From Wickerhamiella versatilis (taxonomy: Eukaryota): DNA of 64,000 nucleotides. Location: assembly GCA_030867685.1 (NCBI GenBank), contig JAQOWU010000003.1, positions 1,240,001-1,304,000 of the forward strand. The letters are read 5' to 3'. Both the position numbers and the translations under genes were made by a program. The notes under the pieces were generated by a model. The model ran no database searches. It was not told where the DNA came from and saw nothing but the letters and a program-made list of their open reading frames with translations. Positions 1 through 59,941 of the stretch are shown here, in pieces; position 1 is the stretch's first letter; the number at the start of each line of letters is the position of its first letter.

Positions 1-69
1 GCGATCTGAACACTGTATGGGCTCTGCTTTCACAGACTTTTGGCGGTAGAGTCACGTTAATTCTATAGA

Positions 70-897
70 CTAGCCTAAGATATTGTTAAACGAGCCTTCC
101 TGGTGCTTCACCTTCCATATCTCTGTCCCAACATTATAGTTCCCGTGATAGGTCCAGCCCTTCGGGCCTATATGATAGAGATTGACACTTCCACCCGAAT
201 AAGCATCGCGGTGTGTGGCTGCAAGGATGGAACGCTTTCCAAGATCCAGCGCTTCTTGAATTGTGAGATCAGGGCGGTAGCCCACATCTAGTACACCATA
301 GGCAAAGGTCTGGCCGGATCCTACTGAAAACAAGTTTCCGCCAACACGAGAGCCATCTGAGTCAACATAATATATTTCAGGCACATCTTTTCCATGACGT
401 TTGGTGTAGCCGCAGATCATGGTACCCATTGACAAGCCGGCGCCCTTATAATAATAAGTAACATTTGCCAGAATTTTGGATGCTGCGCTGACAGAAATAC
501 GTTCTTTGTTACGCAGTTCATGCAACCTACACTGCGTTCCCAGCCATTTCTCCCAAAACTGGCAATCTGCTGCACCACCGGCCATAGTGCCCAGTAAATA
601 GGGATTGATTTCGAGTACCTTCTTGACGGACTGAGACGCAACCCAGGAGCCTGCAGAGGCACGAGAGTCAACTGCAACAATGATTCCCTCATTAAATTTG
701 AAAGCTAGTGTCGTAGTACCATGCTGAATCTTAATACGAGCATCCGGGTTAGCGGCATCATCTGTGTGTGCACGCAGAAATGCTGCGGGACAGGACAAAT
801 TGGGAAGCGCAAAATCCGGCATAGATTCTGGCTCCTTGGCATCAACTAGGTCATAGCCTACACTGGGCCGAGAGAAACGAGCCGCCAACTCATCCAT
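70..897 (-). CDS. PRE2: 20S proteasome beta5 subunit
   Basis: Propeptide followed by HG|TTTLAF catalytic Thr; [15 protein letters not shown] and HRDAYSGG motifs. Confidence 0.97.
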
Positions 898-1020
898 AAT
901 GCTGTGGCGGTTTGATTATGTAACCAGGCTTGATTCTGGTTACTGTCAAGAAGGGGAAGATTCTTAAATGTGAAGATATTTATTTTTGATATATATATAG
1001 CTAGAAAACGTATGGTGGGA

Positions 1021-3039
1021 TTAATTCACTTCTTCTGATGACACTAGTGACCAGCTGGCGCTCTCCTCGTCACCATCAGTTAATACCACCACATCAAATG
1101 GCGCTATACTAACCTCTGTAGTATCCTTGCCATCCCCAAGCACGTTACGCAATGCTCTGGGTAGTGTTACCTTTCTTAATTCGTAGGTATGGCTAATCAG
1201 AATAAACACCTCATGGTGAGAATTCCTGCGAGAGCATACCTCGATGTCGTCAGGAACGCCTGGAATGTAAGGCCTGATACCAGCCTCGCCCAGCCATAAG
1301 TACACAAGATTGCTTAGCAAGTCATCATCCAGCCATGCTCCAACATAAGTGATCCGTCCATTTCCAACTTTTCTTGTCAAGACTGCAGGCTGGTCATCCA
1401 ACCATCCATTTGATTTGCCATAACGCAAGAGTGTCTCAGTATCCGGGGCTGATGCTCTCAGAAGTTCTGCCCAGACATTGGCAGTGCCAATCCCAGCAAT
1501 CCCTTCAAGAGGCACGTCCGTATCCAAGGCATAAAACTGTTCCACCCTAGCACCAAGCAAGTCAATCAGTGGACCAGGCTGTCGCGCAGGCTGTAATCCG
1601 TTATATTCATTTTTCATGCCACTTCGTGGACCCAGAACTAAGTGTCCACCGCTTTTGATATATTTCTCTAGATGCTCGGGTATTCCTCGAGCAAATACGT
1701 TAAGAGCTGGAGCAACAACAATTTTGTATTTTGAAAGATCTGCGGAAGGAGATACCATGTCGACGCTCTGTGATTGAGCTCTTAATGGATTATAGAAGGC
1801 CTTGAGCTCCTCAATGGGATCAAAATTTTCTGAGTGTTTCTGGAAAGTAATTGCCCATCGACTATCATAGTCATGTATCACGGCTACTTTACCTTGTGGA
1901 CTTGTATTGTCCAATGCCCAGCTGGCCTTACCAAACTCAGCACCCAATTGCTTGATTTCATAGAAACCCGGAACTGGTGTTCCATCAGCACCCAATAGAG
2001 TCGCATGATAAGTCTCATGGCCATTTAGAGCGCTCCGCATTTGCCAGTACAAAATTGCATCTGACCCATGAGCAATACCCTGCCATGCCATATTTCTCAC
2101 GAGACCTTTGCGCAAAGAGACATTGGTGGGCTTCCAATTTGCAAATCCAGGAGCTGTTTCCATGACCCAAAAATTCTTATTCTTGAATCCTCTGGTAAGG
2201 TCGTGGCGAGCAGCATTGTCAATCCAATCATACGTGTCATTTTCGACATAGTTATCCCATGCCGCAAAGTCAAGCGGTTCATGTACCACATACGCATCGA
2301 ACCCAGAAAACCATCCCATTGAGTTCGTGGTTATAAAATGACGAGGATCACTGTACTTGCGTATGGCACTTATCTGATTCTCAAGGTACGACTTCCATGT
2401 ATCACTAACGAAACGCTTCCATTCTAGAAGCAAAGCAGGATTCTCATTAGTTTCGTGAACGGGGATTTGGTCGAAATTGTCATAAGTCATACTCCAATAC
2501 TTGTTGACCCAGCGGTCGTTCAGGGCATCAATGGTACCGTATCGTTCTGCGAGCCAAGCTCTGAATTGACTCTTGGCCTCGGGATCAAACGATACCACAG
2601 ATATCTCGTTGTCTAATTGCCACCCAATCACCGCAGGATGGTGACCAAAACGTCGAGCTAGCTGTTCTGAGATCTTATAAGCGAATTTACGATAGCGACG
2701 ACTGGCAAAAGAAAATTGCTGACGATTTCCATGCTCAGCCCGAACCCCAGAATTATCGACGTTTAAGGTGTCCGGATACTTCGTCGTTAACCAGGCTGGA
2801 GGGGTCGGCGTTGGCGTGCCCAAAACGACCGCCATGCCATAGGAAGCTGCAGTATTCAAGGCGGCTTCCAGCCATTTGAAGTCATAATGACCCTCTTTTG
2901 GTTCCATGGAGCTCCAGGCGAATTCTCCAAGTCTTAGAACTCGGACATGAGCCTCCTGCATCCATTTCAAGTCGCTATGCCACACAGACTCTGGCCACTG
3001 TTCCGGATACCATGCACATCCGAGAATTGGGAAGTTCAT
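1021..3039 (-). CDS. GH42 beta-galactosidase (bacterial-type family)
   Basis: GCAWYPEQW, RLGEFAWSSMEP-x2-G-x-YDF-x-WL, GTPTPTPPAWL, WQLDNE (acid/base Glu), FWVME (nucleophile Glu), then a trimerisation-type domain (YKIVVAPAL...GGHLVLGPRSG). 672 aa, intronless. Confidence 0.93.
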   Translation of the reverse strand: MNFPILGCAWYPEQWPESVWHSDLKWMQEAHVRVLRLGEFAWSSMEPKEGHYDFKWLEAALNTAASYGMAVVLGTPTPTPPAWLTTKYPDTLNVDNSGVRAEHGNRQQFSFASRRYRKFAYKISEQLARRFGHHPAVIGWQLDNEISVVSFDPEAKSQFRAWLAERYGTIDALNDRWVNKYWSMTYDNFDQIPVHETNENPALLLEWKRFVSDTWKSYLENQISAIRKYSDPRHFITTNSMGWFSGFDAYVVHEPLDFAAWDNYVENDTYDWIDNAARHDLTRGFKNKNFWVMETAPGFANWKPTNVSLRKGLVRNMAWQGIAHGSDAILYWQMRSALNGHETYHATLLGADGTPVPGFYEIKQLGAEFGKASWALDNTSPQGKVAVIHDYDSRWAITFQKHSENFDPIEELKAFYNPLRAQSQSVDMVSPSADLSKYKIVVAPALNVFARGIPEHLEKYIKSGGHLVLGPRSGMKNEYNGLQPARQPGPLIDLLGARVEQFYALDTDVPLEGIAGIGTANVWAELLRASAPDTETLLRYGKSNGWLDDQPAVLTRKVGNGRITYVGAWLDDDLLSNLVYLWLGEAGIRPYIPGVPDDIEVCSRRNSHHEVFILISHTYELRKVTLPRALRNVLGDGKDTTEVSIAPFDVVVLTDGDEESASWSLVSSEEVN

Positions 3040-3173
3040 ATTTTCAAATCAGGAATAAATCCAATTGTCAATTGCCAAAAATGTCCTTTCAATGAGTTGC
3101 TCTGTTAACCTAAACGAAGGAAGGCTGAGATGATTAGCTTATCTAGATTCTTATATTAAGTAACCTACAGCGC

Positions 3174-3183
3174 AAAAGTGGGG
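3174..3183 (+). promoter_or_regulatory. Mig1/CreA-type site upstream of the GH42 gene
   Basis: AAAAGTGGGG: AT-rich flank plus SYGGGG core, about 135 bp upstream of the GH42 ATG. Short motif, could be chance. Confidence 0.35.
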
Positions 3184-3511
3184 ACAGCAATTCAAACCGG
3201 TCAGTCATAGCCAATGGAACGCTAAATTAATCTCCGTATATTTTGCAATATAGGAAAAGGGATGGAGCAAATCAAGTTGTACTTTGAGAGAATTTCGGTA
3301 ATCTATTCACATATTACACCTCACCCGACTTTTCACAGTCATCCAGTGAAATATTAAATTTGAGCACATTAATTTATCACACCACAATATATTTATTTCA
3401 GCTCCCCCATAATGCTTTCATTGAATGGAGACCTGTGGCAATGAATAAATGTCACAATGCATTACCTCATCTCAGTATTTCTTGAACCTGCTTACTGTAT
3501 TCCAGATCCCC

Positions 3512-4147
3512 ATGACTGACAAAAGCGACAAAAAAGAGGTGACTGGTGGCGAGGAGCCAAAGAAGGACAACGTGTTTGCCATGTTCGGTGGAGCCAAGCC
3601 TAAAAAGGAAGAGCCTAAGGACGAGCCTAAGGACGAGGTCAAGTCCCAGGACAAGGATGCGACCTCAGGAGAGGCGGAGAAAAAGAATGATGACGACGAG
3701 GCCCCTGAGTCCCCTGAGGTTGATTTTAAACCTCTTGTGCATCTTGAACGCGTGGAGGTTCGCACTAACGAAGAAGATGAGGACTCCCTCTTCAAGATCA
3801 GAGCAAAGCTTTTCCGGTTCTCGAAGGAGGACAAGGAGTGGAAAGAGCGTGGTACTGGCGACGTGAAGTTCCTCAAGCATAAGGTGACGGGTAAAGTGCG
3901 TGTGCTAATGCGCCGTGACAAGACGCTGAAGATCTGTGCGAACCATTATGTTAGCCCAGAGTACAAGCTGACCCCTAACATTGGTAGCGAACGCAGTTGG
4001 GTCTATCAAGTTGCATCTGATACGAGTGATGGTGAACCGGAAGCCCAGACCCTCGCAATCCGCTTCGGTAACAAGGAGAACGCAGACAAGTTTAAAGAGG
4101 AGTTTGAGAAGGCTCAGAAGCTCAACAAAGAAGCCAGCGAAAAGTAA
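3512..4147 (+). CDS. YRB1: Ran-binding protein 1 (RanBD1)
   Basis: RAKLFRF...WKERGTG...[13 protein letters not shown] RanBD motifs. The second ATG (MTDKSD) is the likelier start; the ORF track starts at 3449. Confidence 0.95.
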
Positions 4148-4649
4148 ACAGCTGAATAGACTTCTATAGGTTTGAGATAATTAGCCCATTTATTTTCTGG
4201 GGTGTACTATAGTTCTATCTTGATACGAGCTCTCTGTTGGGCTGTATTTATCTGCAAAAATAACACAAGCATATATTAAGGATGCTCAAATAGAATCGGG
4301 GTGACAAAGAATAACGCCCATCCCGACTCCTGGAATGTTTTTTAAAAAGCAATAATTAGATTTTTCGACAAAACTATTAGAAGAAGTATGATAATAGTCA
4401 AGTACCTGACTTTCCAGCCCCACCTATCGCGAATAAAAGGCCAATTGAAATAATAACATCAGATGCGATTTTTTCTTAATAACAATCAGCTACAATCGTA
4501 CAAATAAAATACAACCAAGGTCGGCGATACGCTCATGCTAACTAATTCACGTTAGCTAATCAAGGGCTTAGGGCACCCATCACAGACCTCTCAGGTTACG
4601 TCAGGACTCAACGACAGTTAGGCCCACGAGTGTCCATCTCAGCACCAAA

Positions 4650-5171
4650 ATGGCAGGGGACAAGTTTGCGAATCCTATGCGAAAGCCGTTTATCGAGAAG
4701 CTGGTGCTCAACATATCAGCAGGTGAGTCTGGTGATAAGTTGACCCGTGCTGCAAAGGTTTTGGAGCAGCTCTCGGGTCAGACCCCAGTTTACTCTAAGG
4801 CCCGTTACACCGTTCGTACCTTCGGTATCCGTCGTAACGAAAAGATCTCTTGCCACGTTACTGTCCGTGGTGAGAAGGCTTCCGAGATCTTGGAGCGTGG
4901 TCTCCGAGTGAAGGAGTACGAGCTCAACAACGGCAACTTTTCCAACACCGGAAACTTTGGCTTCGGTATCAACGAGCACATTGAGTTGGGTGTTAAGTAC
5001 GACCCCAATATTGGTATTCATGGTATGGACTTTTATGTTGTCCTTGGTCGCCCAGGTTACCGGGTATCTCGCCGTAAGGTACAGAAGAACCGAGTCGGTA
5101 ACCAGCACCGTCTCACGAAGGATGACGCTATTGAGTGGTTCAAGCAGTCCTATGATGGTGTTGTTGTGTAA
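4650..5171 (+). CDS. RPL11: 60S ribosomal protein uL5/L11
   Basis: [52 protein letters not shown]; strong codon bias. Confidence 0.98.
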
Positions 5172-5299
5172 TTCTTAAATAAAACTAACCAACTAAGAGC
5201 ATTTGTCCTTAGAAGAAGATGTCGTGATTTAGATGTTTTTGGGCTTACAGCAATATTTTATTATAGTTCTGTCAATAAATATTGTCCTCAACTAGCTGC

Positions 5300-6112
5300 T
5301 CATTGTGCCTTGGCTTTTTCCAGGCCTTCCGCAGAATAAATGTCCCGCTTTGAAGCAAGATAATCACGTTCAACTGTATATCGCCACAAAGCCCAGCGCA
5401 TTAGGGACATGAAGTAGTGGCGTGGTGAATATTCTGGCCATAACTGAGGCACGAATTCTATGCGGGTGCGAGTGCCCTCGTCAATTTCCCATAGCAGGAA
5501 ATCACTGAGCCGGTCGGTTCCTGAAGTACGAATTAGGAGATCAAGCGGACTACAATTAGCAGTATAAAGATGCTTTGAAACTTCTTTTTCTGTTATATTC
5601 TGCTGGTGTCCTGCAGCAAGATCACGTATTGCGTGAGAAATGTCATCTCGTGCTGTGTAGGGCACACAGATGTTAAGTACAAAATTTTTATGCATGGATG
5701 TCCTTCTTATCAATTCGGCGCATGTTTCCTGAATATCAGGTGGCAGCATTGAAGTTGCGCCTAAAATTTTCACCTGCACTCCATGCTTTTCGGCCACCTC
5801 ACCCTGATCAGCAATAGTCTGCAATTTTCCCCTAGCTATATCCATGAGATGATCTACCTCATTTTGCGGCCTACGAAAGTTTTCGATCGAGAATGCGAAT
5901 ATCGTGACTTCTTTAACTCCCGCACTGAAGCTCATATCCAGTATGGGCCCCAGGGCGTTAAACCCAGAAGAGTGTCCTTGGTCAAGGGGTTGTGAATTTC
6001 GTCTGGCCCATCGCCTGTTTCCGTCCATTACAATACCCACATGTCTAGGAACAGGCGCATTCTTCAGTAACTGAAGCAAAATCCACCGTAGGCCACTCTC
6101 GACAAAGTCCAT
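5300..6112 (-). CDS. RER2: cis-prenyltransferase (dehydrodolichyl diphosphate synthase)
   Basis: PRHVGIVMDGNRRWA, FAFSIENF-x-R and DLLIRTSG-x2-RLSDFLLW motifs. RER2 versus SRT1 paralog not certain. Confidence 0.88.
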   Translation of the reverse strand: MDFVESGLRWILLQLLKNAPVPRHVGIVMDGNRRWARRNSQPLDQGHSSGFNALGPILDMSFSAGVKEVTIFAFSIENFRRPQNEVDHLMDIARGKLQTIADQGEVAEKHGVQVKILGATSMLPPDIQETCAELIRRTSMHKNFVLNICVPYTARDDISHAIRDLAAGHQQNITEKEVSKHLYTANCSPLDLLIRTSGTDRLSDFLLWEIDEGTRTRIEFVPQLWPEYSPRHYFMSLMRWALWRYTVERDYLASKRDIYSAEGLEKAKAQ

Positions 6113-6272
6113 TAGTTGTCACTGACTAAAATTGGAAACTGTGTTTAGAGCTCACCCAGCTGAGAATAAGAACAGAATCGTTACCCCTATTTCTCAAGCT
6201 ATAGCGTGTACTAGTCGCTGTGGCAAACTTTGGGTCAAATAGCCACTAAACGTTGATTTGTCACTGTGGCTT

Positions 6273-22666: not shown

Positions 22667-23854
22667 TTAAAATTTAGAAGGTGCGCCTAATATATTAGGA
22701 GTTGTAAGCAATGTTCCTACCGCAGTTGTTTCTGGTCGCCAGGTAGGCTTTGGGGGCTCTTGCGGAGACAACTGATATTGTCGAACACTAAACTTTGATT
22801 CCTTGGATGGGTCACCCCAGACCTCATCAAATATGGCAACTTCCGAACTTCTAGGACTTTCGTTGTCCTCATTGCTGTCAGCACTGAACCAAAGCAAAAT
22901 ACTGCGGTATTTCATCAGGGCGAATGAAGACGTTCCAAAGCAGACAAAGAGGATCCATGAAAGAGCCACCAGAATAATTTTCACAGCCAAATTGTTTTCC
23001 AAGACTATGGTAGCACTCTTTGCATCTTTTGACTCTTGGAAGGCAGAAAATGGCATGCGCAGTATTTCATCCCAATTCTCGGGCTTTCCATGAGCCCACG
23101 CTAATGGGGTCGTACCTTGTCTCTGAAGCATAGTTACACATCCTGAAAACATATACATTGACATAGGGCAAAGCACACAGGTCACAACAAAAGAAAATAT
23201 GCTCAAACGAATAAATTGACCTCGTGACATATTCGGAATAAAGCTAACTTTTTCGAATGACTCGGCTTGTCCATAACTGTAGAACCGCACTAAAAATACT
23301 ACCATTGTCACTAAGCAGATTATTCCCAGAATAAATAGCCAAATGACGTAGCACATGATATACGCGACGCTATGGTCAATGTTATTGGAGCATCCAACGT
23401 ACTGAACCACCTGATAACGGGAATACGTAAAAAAAGTATCCACTACAAAAATAATGGTTGGTAAAGATAGTACTGTGGCTGCAGTTACAATGGACCGCTT
23501 ACGATGCTGCTGGTCTGTCAAAACTCGCGGCGTGGGTCGAATCAGTTCAAGCATCTCCCAGTTAAGAGCACATTGAGTTAATAGCACACCTGGCGAGCCT
23601 GCTGTAAGAAGTCTAACATCAACGTCGCACCATCCAACCCCAGACCACCAGGTGTCTACGGCATCATTGGCCCATTCAATTCCACTAATGGCCGAAGAAA
23701 CACAAAAGTATAGAAACCAGAATGAGAGGATAGTCAAGGCTATGTTAGGCCTCTTGGTGAAGCCAAAGGCAAAAATCACAGGTAGTTGCAATACCGCCCC
23801 TATTATGCTAAAAACTGCAAGCGCAGGACCGTTGTATCCACCACTGTAAGGCAT
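22667..23854 (-). CDS. STE3: a-factor pheromone receptor (STE3-family GPCR)
   Basis: Seven hydrophobic segments, W-x-GVGWCD-x3-RL, RYQVVQYVGC, QFIRL and FVCFGTS motifs. First ATG is at 23854. Confidence 0.92.
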   Translation of the reverse strand: MPYSGGYNGPALAVFSIIGAVLQLPVIFAFGFTKRPNIALTILSFWFLYFCVSSAISGIEWANDAVDTWWSGVGWCDVDVRLLTAGSPGVLLTQCALNWEMLELIRPTPRVLTDQQHRKRSIVTAATVLSLPTIIFVVDTFFTYSRYQVVQYVGCSNNIDHSVAYIMCYVIWLFILGIICLVTMVVFLVRFYSYGQAESFEKVSFIPNMSRGQFIRLSIFSFVVTCVLCPMSMYMFSGCVTMLQRQGTTPLAWAHGKPENWDEILRMPFSAFQESKDAKSATIVLENNLAVKIILVALSWILFVCFGTSSFALMKYRSILLWFSADSNEDNESPRSSEVAIFDEVWGDPSKESKFSVRQYQLSPQEPPKPTWRPETTAVGTLLTTPNILGAPSKF

Positions 23855-34963: not shown

Positions 34964-36025
34964 TCACCCTAGTCCTTGAAGCTTCGTCGTTTCCACCATA
35001 TAGTCCTCAAAACTGAAATTTACATAGCCATCACGGTCAGAATCGAACCGTTTAAACACATCTGTTATTGACTTGATATTGATACAACTCTGAACAAACA
35101 TGTCGAAACTCATTTCGCGTTGCCCGTTACGACGAAGCCTCGTGCCACTACTGTACATGAATGCAACACACTTATGGCTCAGCTTGTAGCCAAATGCGGC
35201 GAGAGCAGCTGAGAATTGATCTTCTGTTATACGTTCACTATTATCGACGTCGAACTGGTCGAATATTGCTCGCCACTCGTGGAGAAACTTCCATAGTTGG
35301 CCAAACTCAGGAAAGTACAGGGCTCCGTCACCGTCATTATCAAACATACGAATCATTAAGCGTACCGTCTGGGGATCAAATCTAGTGTAATCGCCATTCA
35401 CCAACGCACATGATAGCTCCCGCTCGGTGAGATAGCCATTTTTCTTCCGGTCCACTTCATCAAAAAGACTGCGTAGATCCGGCTGCCGTCTGGGAGGCGG
35501 CGTCGCAGGAGCAGGAACTGGGATTCTGTTGTGTGACGACTTCCTGGGCGTTGGCACGGCCGCTGGGCCTGAAGCTGACCGTGGGATAGGTTGCTGTGGA
35601 GGAACCGGTTGCGAAGCTACTACCGGCTGGTGCTGGTACTGGTGCTGGTGCTGGTGTTGGTGCTGTGGCTGGTACTGGTGCTGTGGTTGTGGCTGTGGCT
35701 GCGGCTGTGGCTGGTAGGCCTGCTGCGGCAAACTCCACTGGCTCCCTCCTGACGGTACCCGCGGCTGCTCCGGGGGAACACTTTGTCTGGGAACCTGGTA
35801 TGGCACTGGCTGTCTAGGAATCTGAGATTGCGGCCAGTAGTTCGCTCCTTGGGATACCATTTGCTGTGGCTGCATTACCACAGGACTTGACGATGCGGAC
35901 ATGGGTCGGTTATATCTTTGTTGAGGAGGGATGGGGACATTTCCCAAGTCTCCATAAGCTGGTGAGTAGTTATGAGCGCGACCGTACGCTTCCGAAGGAG
36001 TGGGGAAGCGAGCCAGGTCGTCCAT
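34964..36025 (-). CDS. PEF1: penta-EF-hand protein (peflin)
   Basis: P/Q-rich N-terminus, then ALVNGD...[14 protein letters not shown] and successive EF hands. Confidence 0.92.
35627..35713 (-). repeat. coding hexamer repeats (QP/QH) within PEF1
   Basis: TGGTGC/TGTGGC-type units encoding [27 protein letters not shown]. Confidence 0.8.
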
Positions 36026-36057
36026 ATCCTATCGAAAAGCCTTATTACTAATAAAAA

Positions 36058-36855
36058 CTAGGAGATAGCTAGAACTACCACGATCGTGACCAGCACGGTT
36101 GTCAATGTTGGAATTGTAAGTGGTTGAGCTGCATTGGCTTGGCAAACCCATTTATTATAGCCCTCGGTACAGTTTAGAGATGCAGATGCAGATGCAGATG
36201 CAGATGTTGTTGGACTAGCACTGCCGGTTTGTGCCGCTGTCGTGAGCGACCGGCTGTTAGGCAATCCAGGAGCTAAACTCAAAGATGTAATGTTGAAGTT
36301 TAATAGTGAAGAGCTGGTGCTAGAAGCTCCTCCTGTACAAGGGGTGGTCACCCATACAGTTTCCGTAGTTTCTACGTTGTTGGTGATAGTGGCGACCGTA
36401 GTGGTAACCACTGCAGAAGACGACGACGTGGAATCGCTCGTGGTGCTAGCAGCGGATGCAGTGGAGCATGGCTTTGTGACATAGTCTGTCTGGACTAGTG
36501 TTGTGGTGGCAGCATCACCCTCTTTTCCCTGCTGCGTACTTTCGATTGATGCTGAAGAGGCTGTTGATATGACAGGCTCACATGTGCCAGAATTCGTCGT
36601 TGGGGTCGAATCATCTGAGGCTGATGTTGATGTGATCGAGGTATCTGCTGAACTCAAAGCGATTGATTCACCCGTTTCGGCAGTGCTTGACGGAGAGCTG
36701 TTTTCTGTCTGATCCGTGGACGGTGAGGTGGTCCCCGGCCCAAACGTGATGACGGAAGTGCCTGTGGGTACAATATACGAACTCCCATCAAACGCAGAAG
36801 GTTCTTCAATGAATTGCGCGAAAGAAATCGCAAAAAACAGTACTATATGGTACAT
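36058..36855 (-). CDS. Ser/Thr-rich secreted, probably GPI-anchored cell-surface protein
   Basis: Signal-like MYHIVLFFAISFA, S/T-rich body with VT-x-PC motifs, and an NAA omega-like site before a hydrophobic C-terminus. Confidence 0.8.
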   Translation of the reverse strand: MYHIVLFFAISFAQFIEEPSAFDGSSYIVPTGTSVITFGPGTTSPSTDQTENSSPSSTAETGESIALSSADTSITSTSASDDSTPTTNSGTCEPVISTASSASIESTQQGKEGDAATTTLVQTDYVTKPCSTASAASTTSDSTSSSSAVVTTTVATITNNVETTETVWVTTPCTGGASSTSSSLLNFNITSLSLAPGLPNSRSLTTAAQTGSASPTTSASASASASLNCTEGYNKWVCQANAAQPLTIPTLTTVLVTIVVVLAIS

Positions 36856-46303: not shown

Positions 46304-47095
46304 ATGTTCAATGTGAAAGGAAAAGTAGCTGTTATCACCGGAGGATCACGAGGCCTGGGTTTAGCCATTGGCCGTGAGTTCCTCATAGCTGGGGCCGACA
46401 AGGTGGTGCTTGTATCGCGCAAACAGGATGCCTGTGATAAGGCCGCAGCCGAATTGAATAACGAGCATCTCGGCAGTGGCCGAGCGGATGGCCTTGGTGT
46501 AGATTTGGGAGCTCCTGACGGTGGCAAGAAGCTCAAGGAATCTCTCACAAATAAGCTGGGTCTCACAAAATTAGATATACTGGTGGCAAATGCTGGTGCC
46601 ACTTGGGGGGCAGATTTCGCCTCTCACCCCTCGGGAGCAATTGACAAGGTGCTTAATTTGAATATCCGTGGTGTATTCCTCAGCATACAGGCTCTCGAGC
46701 CAATGCTCGCTGCATCAGGTACAAATGAAGATCCGTCCCGAGTTATTATAACTGGATCGGTCGCGGGTCTTCGTGCTGGACTGAGTGGGGGTACATATGG
46801 GTATCTCGCGTCCAAAGCAGCGGTTCATCACCTAGCCAAGTCACTCTCCGTGGAATTGGGTCCGGAAAAGATCACTGTTAACGTTATCGCACCAGGATTT
46901 GTTCCCACGAAGATGTCAAACGGCCTATTGGAGGTAATTGGTGACGAAATGAGAGATAGCACTCCGCTAAGACGTTTAGGAAAGCCGGAGGATGTCGGCT
47001 TTGCCGCCGTATATTTATGCTCTCCAGCTGCGTCCTTCGTGAACGGAGTCGTGCTCCCTGTGGACGGTGGCATCCACCTGGCTGGTCGTTTGTGA
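46304..47095 (+). CDS. short-chain dehydrogenase/reductase (RhlG-like), possibly peroxisomal
   Basis: TGGSRGLG, ANAGATWG, Y-x3-K (YLASK) and VDGG; C-terminal GRL resembles a PTS1. Confidence 0.9.
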   Translation: MFNVKGKVAVITGGSRGLGLAIGREFLIAGADKVVLVSRKQDACDKAAAELNNEHLGSGRADGLGVDLGAPDGGKKLKESLTNKLGLTKLDILVANAGATWGADFASHPSGAIDKVLNLNIRGVFLSIQALEPMLAASGTNEDPSRVIITGSVAGLRAGLSGGTYGYLASKAAVHHLAKSLSVELGPEKITVNVIAPGFVPTKMSNGLLEVIGDEMRDSTPLRRLGKPEDVGFAAVYLCSPAASFVNGVVLPVDGGIHLAGRL

Positions 47096-48853: not shown

Positions 48854-49870
48854 ATGACACTACACAGCCGAGTGATTGGGTATTTAACACGCTGGTCGCC
48901 ACTCCGTATCCGGGAAGTAAAAATTGGTGACAAAATTAACTCTAATGACGTTGTCCTAAAACTATCGCATATCGGCTTGAATCCAATAGATATCAAGCTC
49001 AAAAGCGTGTCGTTCCTCCCCATGCATTGGACTATAGGCAAGGACTTTTGTGGTGTGGTGGAATCCACGGGGCGTGACACAGGGTTCAAAGTTGGAGACC
49101 GCGTTTGTGGAGGACTCGTCAGTCCTTTCAATGGATTTGTTGGGACGAGAGCATTGCTGAATGCAAAGATACATCCAGTTCTGCATGCGCCCCCAACTCT
49201 AACCAACGAAGAGGCCTGCGCGTTCCCATTAACATTCGGGACGGCCTGGAAGCTGGTGAAAAGTGCCAATATCTCCCCAGAGCAACCGGTGCTCGTCCTA
49301 GGAGGGGCCACAAATGTCGGAACCTATGCTATACAACTACTCAAGTGGTATGGGGTAAAAAGAGTCATTGCTACATGCTCTGAACGCAGTAAGGAGCTTG
49401 TGAAAAGCCTAGGTGCGGAGACAGTCGATTACAAGTCTAAGAATTTCCAGCAGGACCTGATTCAGAGCATTTCCCCTGCAAAGTTCGGAGCTATTATAGA
49501 CACAGTTGGAGGTATGGATGCATTGAATATATGGCCTAAGATTTTGCTTCCTGCTGCAGAGGGTGGTGTCTATGCCACAATCGCAGGCGACATGGCCCCA
49601 GGTAACACATATGCAGAGTCTATGATTGCCCCAACATTGAGAGCACCCTGGATCATCTCTCGACTGCTCTTTGGCCGACTTTGGGGTCTCAACTATAAAC
49701 TGGTGCAAATGGGGAATGGTGAATGGGTAAACGAAGCACCAAGATTTTTCTGCAAATCTGGAGTGGTTGTTCCCATAGACTCAATTACAAAATTCGATGA
49801 CTACCAAGTAGCTTGGGATCGACTCAATAGCCTTCAGGCTCGAGGCAAGGTACTTCTGTCCACCAGCTAG
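48854..49870 (+). CDS. YIM1: medium-chain reductase, Yim1-like
   Basis: GLNPIDIK, IGKDFCGVV, VLVLGGATNVG-x2-AIQL and ARGKV. Symbol tentative. Confidence 0.7.
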   Translation: MTLHSRVIGYLTRWSPLRIREVKIGDKINSNDVVLKLSHIGLNPIDIKLKSVSFLPMHWTIGKDFCGVVESTGRDTGFKVGDRVCGGLVSPFNGFVGTRALLNAKIHPVLHAPPTLTNEEACAFPLTFGTAWKLVKSANISPEQPVLVLGGATNVGTYAIQLLKWYGVKRVIATCSERSKELVKSLGAETVDYKSKNFQQDLIQSISPAKFGAIIDTVGGMDALNIWPKILLPAAEGGVYATIAGDMAPGNTYAESMIAPTLRAPWIISRLLFGRLWGLNYKLVQMGNGEWVNEAPRFFCKSGVVVPIDSITKFDDYQVAWDRLNSLQARGKVLLSTS

Positions 49871-57839: not shown

Positions 57840-58574
57840 CTAGTCCTGCTCTGCGATGGCAACAAGACGCTCCTCTATTTCGTCGACAGAGAGCTTCCTG
57901 AACAGCGAGTCGGGCCCCACAATGCCAACCTCCAAGTCATTTTTGCGGAAGTCGACCGCAACAACCTCGCTGAGGGCGTTGATACCAAGCTCAACCGCCC
58001 CTTTCCAATCACCATTAAAGTGGGTCTTGTTCTTCAGTTTCTTTTCTAGCCAAACCATAGCCTCTTGTTGCTTAGGACCGGCAGAGGTTGCCTTATATCC
58101 GGCATAGTATCCCGCGGGGTCGCATTTGAAAACTTGGGAGCCGAACTCATCATCAACCCCAATTAGGGTCATTGCTACACCTAGAGGCCTCATGTACGCG
58201 CGCTGCGTGTACACCTGGTTAATGTTGGCGATTCTCTTTGCAAGTGCATCGCATGGCATGTCATAGCCATGCTTGTGGCGAAACTCCAGGGCTTCACCAC
58301 GAGCACGGCTCACAAGGGCTCTTGAGTCACCAATAGGGCCTGTCATGACACAACCTAGTCGCTTTGAGAGCGGGAAAATGTATGTGACAGTGTCTGAGTC
58401 GACCAGCCTGTCACTGACCTTCTTTTGTGCCACAATGACAGAGCAGTCCTTCCCTCTTATTGCCACACTGGTGAGATTGGTGGACTTTATAGCTTTAAAT
58501 GCATACTCCACTTGGTACAGGCGTCCCTCAGGGGAGAAGACTGTAATGTGGCGGTCGAACCCAGCAGCGCTCAT
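57840..58574 (-). CDS. SCL1: 20S proteasome alpha1 subunit
   Basis: AGFDRHITVFSPEGRLYQVEYAFKA and QVYTQRAYMRPLGV. Confidence 0.98.
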   Translation of the reverse strand: MSAAGFDRHITVFSPEGRLYQVEYAFKAIKSTNLTSVAIRGKDCSVIVAQKKVSDRLVDSDTVTYIFPLSKRLGCVMTGPIGDSRALVSRARGEALEFRHKHGYDMPCDALAKRIANINQVYTQRAYMRPLGVAMTLIGVDDEFGSQVFKCDPAGYYAGYKATSAGPKQQEAMVWLEKKLKNKTHFNGDWKGAVELGINALSEVVAVDFRKNDLEVGIVGPDSLFRKLSVDEIEERLVAIAEQD

Positions 58575-58603
58575 AGCGTTAACTAAGCAATCGCCAGAGG
58601 CGG

Positions 58604-59941
58604 ATGCCTACATATGATGAGAAGACGACACGTCTTCGACCAGGATTCCAGGACTTTGTTACATCCTGGCATCCTCGTGTATCATATCATTTCAATGAGG
58701 AGGCAGCCCCATACCATTTTGGAGCAAGCCATCCGATGAAGCCATTTCGTCTCATGCTAACTGACCACTTAGTTCTGAGCTATAACCTACAAAACCGCAT
58801 GGATTGGTATAGACCAAGAGCAGCCACAGAGGATGAAATTCTGGAGTTCCATGCTGAGGAATACGTGGACTTCCTAAAGCACGTCACCCCGAGGACCCTC
58901 TCAGATTTCTCAGACGTTGCAAAATTCAATATTGGCGAAGACTGCCCAATTTTCGATGGATTATTTCGCTATGCATCTATCTGTGCTGGCGCAAGCCTAG
59001 ATGCTGCGAGAAAGCTGATAAGCGGACAATCGGATATAGCTATAAATTGGTCGGGAGGGCTGCACCACGCTAAGAAATTCGAGGCCTCTGGATTTTGCTA
59101 TGTTAATGACATCGTCTTGGGTATTCTTCAGCTCCTTCGGTATCATCCGCGTGTTCTTTATATTGATATTGATGTGCATCATGGTGATGGCGTCCAGGAA
59201 GCATTCTATCTTACCGATCGCGTAATGACATTGAGCTTTCACAAATACGATGGCATTTTCTTCCCTGGGACGGGGTCTGTGGATGAGGTTGGTGCCCTAG
59301 ATGGTAAACGCTTTGCCCTCAATGTGCCTCTTAGGGATGGAATTGATGATGAGTCCTACACCAGGCTGTTTAAATCTGTCGTGGACCAAACCATAACAAA
59401 ATTTCGCCCTACTGCAATTGTGCTTCAGTGCGGTGCAGACTCCTTAGGTTGTGATCGTCTTGGAAGCTTCAACCTAACGGTGAAAGCACACGGCGAATGC
59501 GTCCGCTACGTTAAGACATTTGCGATACCAACAATGGTTGTTGGTGGCGGGGGCTATACGCCTCGTAATGTGAGTCGTGCTTGGGCATATGAGACAGCTA
59601 TATGTGTCGATGCTGATGTGTCCCCACACTTACCCGAAACACTGCCGTTTTATAGCCAGTATGCGCCGGATCACTCATTATTTCCAAAACTCTCTGGCCA
59701 CATCGAAAACAAGAACACTCGAGCGTACCTGGAGAATGTGCATGCTCGTGTTTTGGAAGATTTGCGTTATTTGAATGGTGCTCCATCTGTCCAGATGCAA
59801 GTCATCCCGCCAGACCTGGGGGGTCATAATGAGAACACTGACCAGGAAATGAAGGATGCTCACGACGATAATAATGCCGATGTACGTGATAAGGAGCAGG
59901 ATACGCGTGATGAAAATCGTCGCCGTGAGGTGCCTGTGTAA
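58604..59941 (+). CDS. HOS2: class I histone deacetylase Hos2
   Basis: RVSYHFN...[32 protein letters not shown] and [10 protein letters not shown]. Confidence 0.95.

Follow-up and report, generated by a model that had tools for sequence, protein, structure and literature searches.

A GH42 beta-galactosidase gene of probable bacterial origin in the chromosome of Wickerhamiella versatilis

According to the available part of one survey, lactose supports growth in 24 of 332 budding-yeast species, and the known route consists of LAC12 together with the GH2-type lactase LAC4 (10.1101/2023.12.19.572343). In this route the disaccharide is imported and then hydrolysed in the cytosol, as set out in the accessible portions of two sources (10.1101/2023.12.19.572343; PMC6926475). 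A second body of work concerns the bacterial genes carried by the Wickerhamiella/Starmerella yeasts. The part of this work that is available catalogues close to 600 xenologues in three species, assigns 284 of 352 acquired metabolite-interconversion enzymes to bacteria and describes how the xenologues of W. versatilis gather in poorly expressed domains at chromosome ends (PMC13376923). The two subjects meet in the gene described here, a beta-galactosidase gene of family GH42 in a stretch of W. versatilis DNA of 64,000 nucleotides (assembly GCA_030867685.1, contig JAQOWU010000003.1, positions 1,240,001 to 1,304,000 of the forward strand). This whole stretch is called the window, and all positions are counted from its first letter. 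Taken as a whole, the gene is best explained as an acquired bacterial gene for a secreted GH42 enzyme that was domesticated as a cytosolic beta-galactosidase, and we hold this explanation with good confidence.

The GH42 gene and its bacterial relatives

The open reading frame (ORF) occupies positions 1021 to 3039 on the minus strand, runs without intron from ATG to TAA and encodes 672 amino acids plus the stop. An in-frame stop codon lies four codons upstream of its ATG, with no other ATG of the frame in between. Pfam assigns residues 10-369 to PF02449 (Glyco_hydro_42) with an E-value of 2.4e-117 and 392.9 bits against a cut-off of 21, and positions 2-373 of the 376 in the profile are covered; this is domain A, the (beta/alpha)8 catalytic domain (1933-3012, minus strand). 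Residues 384-588 match the GH42 trimerisation domain PF08532 (E 1.4e-43), which constitutes domain B (1276-1890, minus strand). No match to PF08533, the Pfam entry for the C domain, was obtained at E<=1e-3, and none to any NCBIfam entry at E<=1e-10. The strands that DSSP recognises in an AlphaFold2 model place domain C, a small five-strand beta-sandwich, at residues 599-654 (1078-1245, minus strand). This model was built from an alignment of 60 rows (A1) and reached a mean predicted local distance difference test score (pLDDT) of 94.9 and a predicted template modelling score (pTM) of 0.94. Beyond domain C the protein ends in an acidic tail of 18 residues (655-672), which is of low confidence or disordered in the model, with pLDDT below 50 at residues 667-672. 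A Foldseek search with the whole model returned 3tts as the best match, with a template modelling score (TM) of 0.94 and a root-mean-square deviation (rmsd) of 1.7 Å, followed by 5e9a, 6lvw, 4oif, 6y2k, 1kwg and Bifidobacterium enzymes. The predicted structure has the three-domain A/B/C architecture of GH42.

A phmmer alignment with PDB entry 1kwg pairs E145 with E141 and E294 with E312, residues of 1kwg which we take to be the acid/base and the nucleophile, respectively. The putative acid/base E145 lies in a D-N-E motif (codon 2605-2607, minus strand) and is invariant in 60 of 60 rows of A1, and the putative nucleophile E294 lies in a V-M-E motif (codon 2158-2160, minus strand) and is present in 59 of the 60. 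Among the 57 non-yeast rows 103 positions are conserved at a level of at least 85%, and the yeast protein keeps 97 of them. Membership of GH42 is confirmed by every sequence and fold criterion examined. A preliminary description, made from the letters of the stretch, had read this frame as an intact and intronless GH42 gene of 672 codons, and the ORF itself, the Pfam domains, the catalytic glutamates and the unspliced RNA reported below bear this out.

The relatives of the protein were sought in 5.8 billion clustered proteins, and the 120 best matches were listed. Three of them are yeast-type proteins with 99, 82 and 75% identity. A gap follows, after which identities continue at 60-64% over residues 5-653, and every named organism among the matches listed beyond this gap is bacterial: Acidobacterium, Alloacidobacterium, Paracidobacterium, Acidipila, Xanthomonas and Rhodanobacter. 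No fungal name occurs among the 120 listed best matches, which reach down to 60% identity. In a library clustered at 50% identity, which gave 7,524 hits at E<=1e-3, the whole group is reduced to one representative (55%) and the next match stands at 46%. Scans of prokaryotes with one genome per species found 53 and then at least 572 relatives, of which the best 80 were taken. The fetched loci with at least 55% identity to the yeast protein comprise 81 from Acidobacteriota, 9 from Pseudomonadota, 2 from Vulcanimicrobiota and 1 unassigned, counts that include duplicates since a few regions were fetched twice. The yeast protein is 62-64% identical to this Acidobacteriaceae/Xanthomonadales subclade, more than the 35-49% found between bacterial phyla outside the subclade. 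Metagenome contigs were also scanned with yeast-specific peptide patterns, and among the best 80 of 178 relatives the highest identity was 62%, none reached 70% and no more yeast-type copies appeared. The best 120 protein matches and the metagenome scan thus turned up only three yeast-type lineages.

The trees agree with this distribution. In a quick LG+G4 tree of 71 rows, the four yeast-type rows form a clade with 100% support inside a group of 46 Xanthomonadales/Acidobacteriaceae rows. For more careful trees 41 of the 71 rows were used, after removal of near-duplicates, several Bacillota and Chloroflexota and some long-branch representatives. An LG+C20 tree with posterior mean site frequencies (PMSF) was rooted on Chloroflexota-type GH42s, with Chloroflexota, Myxococcota and Verrucomicrobiota as distant outgroups. 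In this tree the yeast clade (100/100) is sister to Xanthomonas plus Rhodanobacter (92/98), and the two together fall within Acidobacteriaceae; Xanthomonas plus Rhodanobacter are again the sister group in the careful LG+G4 tree, though less firmly (71/97). Horizontal transfer from bacteria is well supported by such comparisons of sequences, and the transfer appears to be old enough that no sampled bacterium is close. As far as the trees tell, the source subclade is clear and the donor lineage is not. The horizontal acquisition already proposed in the preliminary description finds its support in the bacterial relatives at 60-64% identity, in the nesting within a bacterial subclade and in the bridged junctions of the locus.

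Within bacteria the subclade is abundant in Acidobacteriaceae and is found as well in Xanthomonas, Rhodanobacter and other Lysobacterales, in metagenome-assembled genomes (MAGs) of Ideonella and Acetobacteraceae and in Vulcanimicrobiota MAGs, with mutual identities of 60-80%. It appears that the gene passes from one bacterial phylum to another as one unit.

Integration, expression and changes in the yeast lineage

Twenty public runs, which belong to 13 studies, contain a stretch of 5.2 kb around the gene in whole or in part. Three DNA runs of separate studies were compared (X1, X9 and X11), namely two isolates labelled as the same organism (2018 and 2016) and a food metagenome (2013). In each of them one contig piece spans positions 1-6200 of the window, on contigs of 35,687, 117,930 and 12,258 bp, and the base differences over this span number 0 (X1), 16 (X9) and 22 (X11). 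The 2018 run, nearly identical to the window, may have a common origin with it; the other two clearly represent different strains. The records also place near-identical GH42, PRE2 and NPL4 proteins, in each case, on contigs of up to 1,348,231 bp. The GH42 gene is physically part of the yeast chromosome.

In its composition the gene resembles its host. Its GC content is 0.470 and its GC at third codon positions (GC3) is 0.440, compared with a GC3 of 0.463 +/- 0.067 for the 39 other ORFs of the window. When the ORFs were ranked by the likelihood of their synonymous codons under the pooled usage of the other genes, GH42 came 29th of 40 from the least host-like end. The homologous genes of Acidobacteriaceae have a GC content of 0.55-0.64, and the ORF shares 64-67% nucleotide identity with the bacterial loci. 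Against 149 bacterial loci, neither blastn nor tblastx detected any similarity in the two AT-rich spacers that flank the ORF. Codon usage of the gene is host-like, and the gene is fully ameliorated.

Transcription was followed in an unstranded RNA sequencing run labelled as the same organism (X23), of which 24% was read and 21,969 reads were aligned. The summed depth over the GH42 ORF is about 42-102 in all ten bins, against about 1.5-2.4 in the intergenic bins upstream of the gene and about 1-2 over positions 3106-3519. Depth among the neighbours amounts to 80-134 for a cis-prenyltransferase gene, 300-480 for PRE2, 460-680 for YRB1 and up to about 5,600 for an RPL11-like gene. None of the X23 reads over the ORF contains a splice joint, and the gene gives rise to an unspliced mRNA. 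In their variants these reads agree with the second strain (X9); they share, for instance, an in-frame TGG insertion behind position 1390, which is found in 71 of 80 reads and changes Q to HQ near residue 550. The same strain has a deletion of one base at position 1009, in the spacer between GH42 and PRE2. When the two other strains are taken together, 13 sites of the ORF vary. Ten of the changes are synonymous (of 444 such sites) and three nonsynonymous (of 1,572), a pN/pS of about 0.08 (binomial p 3.9e-5) that indicates purifying selection within the species. Together, the excess of synonymous changes and the retention of the conserved positions imply that the protein is kept for its function.

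The most conspicuous change relative to bacteria lies at the N-terminus. All 19 bacterial relatives inspected have 18-55 additional N-terminal residues, including a hydrophobic stretch that ends in A-x-A and is followed by a conserved Q-A-T-x-Y, about ten further residues and the first barrel strand. The yeast proteins start with M-(N/K)-F-P-I-L-G only 4-5 residues ahead of this strand, and no remnant of a signal peptide was found upstream of the GH42 ATG in the window. A leader encoded by an upstream exon is unlikely, because RNA depth is so low over 3106-3519 and splice joints are lacking in the reads. Loss of the segment suggests that the yeast enzyme is probably cytosolic and its bacterial relatives exported. 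The acidic tail is specific to the yeast proteins and does not occur in the bacterial relatives. The Cys cluster of 1kwg (C106/C150/C152/C155) is absent from the yeast protein and from the whole bacterial subclade, and its absence is therefore no novelty of the yeast.

A sister species has homologues with identities of 91% for PRE2, 82% for GH42 (635 aligned residues without gaps, catalytic motifs intact) and 83% for NPL4, and each of the three carries the record '2 contigs, longest 45,147 bp'. The simplest reading of these matching records is that the three genes lie on one contig of 45 kb, as they lie within 30 kb of each other in the window, which would mean that GH42 was in place before the two species split. 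The catalytic motifs are invariant across the three yeast lineages. Since the three yeast-type proteins share the same point of N-terminal truncation and form one clade, they fit a single acquisition followed by descent. The gene call of the sister protein (P0002) begins at the equivalent of residue 32, where M replaces V, so that the first barrel strand is missing together with the conserved W-Y-P-E-Q-W motif; this may be an artefact of start choice or a real difference at the 5' end. An internal start of this kind may be the choice of a bacterial-style gene caller and is not evidence of damage.

The gene stands between two native flanking genes. Downstream, on the same strand, is a PRE2-like gene for the proteasome beta-5 subunit (70-897, minus strand, PF00227), and on the other side a YRB1-like gene with a RanBP1 domain (3449-4147, plus strand, PF00638) is transcribed divergently. 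The spacer between GH42 and PRE2 (898-1020, minus strand) measures 123 bp, is AT-rich (GC 0.35) and contains a TA run at 990-999. Within this short stretch the 3' end of GH42 has to be formed and the essential PRE2 has to have both promoter and start site, and around it, at about 894-904, RNA molecules start or stop, their strand being left unspecified by the library. The AT-rich intergenic region between GH42 and YRB1 (3040-3448, 409 bp, GC 0.357) presumably contains the promoter. The true start of the YRB1-like gene is uncertain. Its RNA coverage begins sharply at 3529, with 49 of 140 molecules, and is about 1 over 3313-3519; the first ATG of the ORF at 3449 and the second at 3512 are both upstream of this coverage, and translation may begin at a later Met, or the gene may have a 5' exon elsewhere.

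Typical eukaryotic genes make up the other 35 ORFs scanned in the window, among them STE3, Arp/actin, NPL4, SMC, RPS6e, L11, an Rpd3-type histone deacetylase (HDAC) and mitochondrial carriers, and no tRNA genes were found in the window. The nearest named relatives of PRE2 are those of Wickerhamiella sorbophila (77%), Trichomonascus vanleenenianus (76%) and Starmerella bacillaris (75%), and the nearest of NPL4 is from Trichomonascus (46%). These relationships fit a fast-evolving yeast of the Wickerhamiella/Starmerella type. Several statements of the preliminary description can be judged from these data. The two flanking genes and the distance of 123 bp to the PRE2 ATG were confirmed by the ORF list, Pfam and the sequence, both junctions are bridged by single contigs in three studies, and the placement near Wickerhamiella and Starmerella is consistent with the closest PRE2. 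Conserved synteny in a sister species, which it had named as a check, holds to the extent that PRE2, GH42 and NPL4 are apparently together there, as the contig records suggest.

Further features of the window concern its compactness and composition. Only about 30 bp separate the divergent genes for a proteasome alpha subunit and the Rpd3-type deacetylase (58574-58604), two tandem genes are about 30 bp apart at 36025-36058, and the STE3-type pheromone receptor gene is located at 22667-23854. By codon usage, a short-chain dehydrogenase/reductase (SDR) gene (46304-47095) and a gene for a zinc-type alcohol dehydrogenase/quinone reductase (48854-49870) are the fifth and sixth least host-like of the 40. 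A bacterial origin of the SDR gene found no support, the best tblastn identity among 18 loci being 36%.

Proposed history and alternative explanations

The preferred explanation can be put as a sequence of events. An ancestor of a small group of Wickerhamiella/Starmerella-like yeasts would have taken up one bacterial gene that encoded a secreted GH42 beta-galactosidase, from a donor in the subclade whose present members are mostly Acidobacteriaceae, with scattered occurrences in Xanthomonas, Rhodanobacter and other Proteobacteria. The ORF alone is retained, between PRE2 and YRB1 and with AT-rich flanks of yeast type; the segment for the signal peptide is lost and the codon usage of the host has been taken on. 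The product would be a cytosolic, probably trimeric and retaining beta-galactosidase with E145 as acid/base and E294 as nucleophile, which may hydrolyse beta-galactosides brought in by a separate transporter. Lactose and galacto-oligosaccharides come into question as substrates, as do oligomers of plant galactan or arabinogalactan, and the outcome would be a route to beta-galactosides without need of a GH2 lactase of the LAC4 type. Family membership, the catalytic residues, expression and purifying selection are the grounds on which such a LAC4-independent use of galactosides or galactan oligomers, also put forward in the preliminary description, is inferred. No gene for a sugar permease was found in the 64-kb window. 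The stretch occurs in runs labelled as food or food-fermentation metagenomes, which is compatible with any of the candidate substrates.

Several observations weigh against this history or parts of it. The best bacterial matches reach about 62-63% identity in either of the two main phyla, and neither phylum stands out as the donor. The tree and the approximately unbiased (AU) test that the preliminary description had in view uphold the nesting of the yeast clade in the bacterial subclade and do not settle its exact position, because an arrangement with the yeast clade outside the 25 Acidobacteriaceae/Xanthomonadales rows is not rejected under LG+G4 (p-AU 0.381). The polarity of the transfer is read from outgroup rooting and taxonomic distribution and not from a rooted test. 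The bacterial neighbourhoods have no consistent sugar-utilisation context and the gene stands alone: the sole neighbour common to the Acidipila and Paracidobacterium loci is an M24-peptidase-like gene, one GH28 gene is found 4.5 kb from GH42 in Acidipila, and the gene of Xanthomonas translucens is surrounded by an alpha/beta hydrolase, DUF1615 and an IS1595 transposase (6.7 kb away). The N-terminal segment of the bacterial proteins looks like a Sec signal peptide as judged by eye only. For the third yeast-type protein (P0003, 75%), no PRE2 or NPL4 match shares its contig record of 35,735 bp, and the RNA library, besides being unstranded, comes from growth conditions that are unrecorded. At positions conserved in at least 85% of the 57 other rows, finally, the yeast clade carries the changes A78P, A326S, W334M and N616S, of which W334M sits two residues from a pocket position, and specificity may have shifted as a consequence.

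These substitutions, together with D263N beside the conserved Y264, lend some substance to the alternative that survives best, according to which the gene was acquired and no longer encodes a beta-galactosidase: it could specify another glycosidase, for example an alpha-L-arabinopyranosidase as in some GH42 members, or a non-catalytic protein, or it could be drifting towards loss. The fold matches include the structure of a GH42 alpha-L-arabinopyranosidase (5xb7), the sister gene call starts within the barrel sequence as described above, and expression is modest. Decay is disfavoured by the synonymous excess and by an insertion that keeps the frame. A change of activity has to be reconciled with the retention of both catalytic glutamates and of nearly all conserved positions, with motifs that have not varied in three yeast lineages and with a model that shows a complete and confident GH42 fold. 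On this balance the alternative is improbable, and a retained beta-galactosidase is the better reading.

The remaining alternatives concern the origin of the gene. It could have come from another eukaryote, such as a fungus with an earlier acquisition, and not directly from a bacterium. The yeast stem is long (0.6 substitutions per site in the LG+C20 tree), no close bacterial donor is at hand and the genomic context of P0003 is open, all of which would suit an intermediate host. No eukaryotic intermediate occurs among the matches of the protein searches and the metagenome scan, however, and the shared truncation within a single clade speaks for one acquisition followed by descent, which makes this route very unlikely. 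An ancient fungal GH42 that was inherited vertically and survives here after many losses elsewhere would explain the complete amelioration of the gene and its place among core genes; the direction of transfer is not given by an unrooted tree alone, and a position of the yeast clade inside the Acidobacteriaceae/Xanthomonadales is not required by the AU test. Such an inheritance is hardly credible given that fungal names are missing from the 120 best listed matches, that the outgroup-rooted tree places the yeast clade inside one shallow bacterial subclade, that the identity to this subclade surpasses the one between bacterial phyla outside it, and that the metagenome scan, with the limits given above, yielded no further yeast-type copies. 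Bacterial contamination or a chimeric misassembly within a yeast contig, which would come to mind for an overwhelmingly prokaryotic family whose closest named relatives are bacterial, can be dismissed as practically negligible in view of the contigs that bridge both junctions in three studies, a GC content and codon usage that are host-like against those of the bacterial homologues, RNA reads from a run labelled as the same organism that cover the ORF with the variants of their own strain, and an identity of only about 63% to any bacterium.

A bolder version of the domestication history would make the gene the basis of a beta-galactoside pathway that relies on GH42, is independent of LAC4 and is the first of its kind in a budding yeast; in it, loss of the signal peptide converted a secreted (periplasmic) into a cytosolic enzyme, the changes W334M and D263N near the active site retuned it to the sugars of fermented food, and the result accounts for the use of lactose or galacto-oligosaccharides in a group of yeasts whose sugar metabolism bacterial genes have largely rebuilt. 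Taken with all its parts this version is possible, and at present doubtful.

Comparison with described systems

The closest counterparts are the secreted GH42 proteins of Acidobacteriaceae and Xanthomonadales, such as those of Alloacidobacterium, Acidipila rosea, Xanthomonas translucens and Rhodanobacter spp., which have the same three domains, the D-N-E and V-M-E motifs and 60-64% identity to the yeast protein. We know of no biochemical characterisation of a member of this subclade. The yeast protein differs by the lack of the signal-peptide-like segment of 18-55 residues and by its acidic tail, and its gene differs by a GC content of 0.47 as opposed to 0.55-0.64 and by its eukaryotic chromosome and flanks.

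More distant are the GH42 enzymes with solved structures, which include 3tts (Bacillus circulans sp. alkalophilus), 5e9a (Rahnella R3), 6lvw (Halorubrum lacusprofundi), 4oif (Geobacillus Gan42B), 1kwg (Thermus A4) and the Bifidobacterium entries 8ibr, 4ucf and 4uni. Their full-length fold is shared with the yeast model (TM 0.86-0.94, rmsd 1.7-2.9 Å over about 675-690 columns), sequence E-values range from 7e-122 to 7e-60, and the catalytic glutamates align. Identity to the yeast protein in the structural alignments is 23-36%, however, and several of these enzymes have a Zn-binding Cys cluster that the yeast protein lacks. According to their entry titles the solved enzymes differ in linkage preference (beta-1,4, beta-1,6 or lacto-N-biose type), and the specificity of the yeast enzyme is therefore not fixed by this comparison.

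In its proposed logic of import followed by cytosolic hydrolysis, the yeast GH42 would parallel LAC12 and LAC4 of Kluyveromyces. LAC4 belongs to GH2, whereas the enzyme described here is a GH42 of apparent bacterial origin with no permease gene beside it in the 64-kb window. Use of beta-galactosides is rare in budding yeasts, and a functional bacterial GH42, if confirmed, would represent another enzymatic solution, independent of the first. For practical purposes the protein is a candidate for a lactase or a hydrolase of galacto-oligosaccharides that acts in the cytosol and comes from a yeast of food fermentations.

The transfer as such belongs to a known phenomenon, the presence of bacterial genes in Wickerhamiella/Starmerella-like yeasts. 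Full-text searches of the literature retrieved no paper that describes a GH42 or beta-galactosidase xenologue in these yeasts, a gene that supplementary gene tables may list. The terms galactosidase, lactose and GH42 are absent from the main text of PMC13376923, PMC11140947, PMC12461148 and PMC5897096, and the supplementary tables of PMC13376923 and PMC5897096 may contain the gene. Of moderate interest are the apparent conversion of an exported into a cytosolic enzyme and the position and expression of the gene among core genes. The locus offers a clean example of domestication, with a single ORF set between essential genes, its secretion signal gone, recoded, transcribed and constrained, and a functional enzyme would add a carbohydrate-active member to the bacterial genes that have rebuilt the metabolism of these yeasts. 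Like the other bacterial xenologues of the Wickerhamiella/Starmerella group, which include ADH1, SUC2, PDC and the enterobactin operon, GH42 is a metabolic enzyme of bacterial type. It differs from the xenologues of W. versatilis that the available part of PMC13376923 places at poorly expressed chromosome ends, in that it is expressed and lies among highly expressed core genes.

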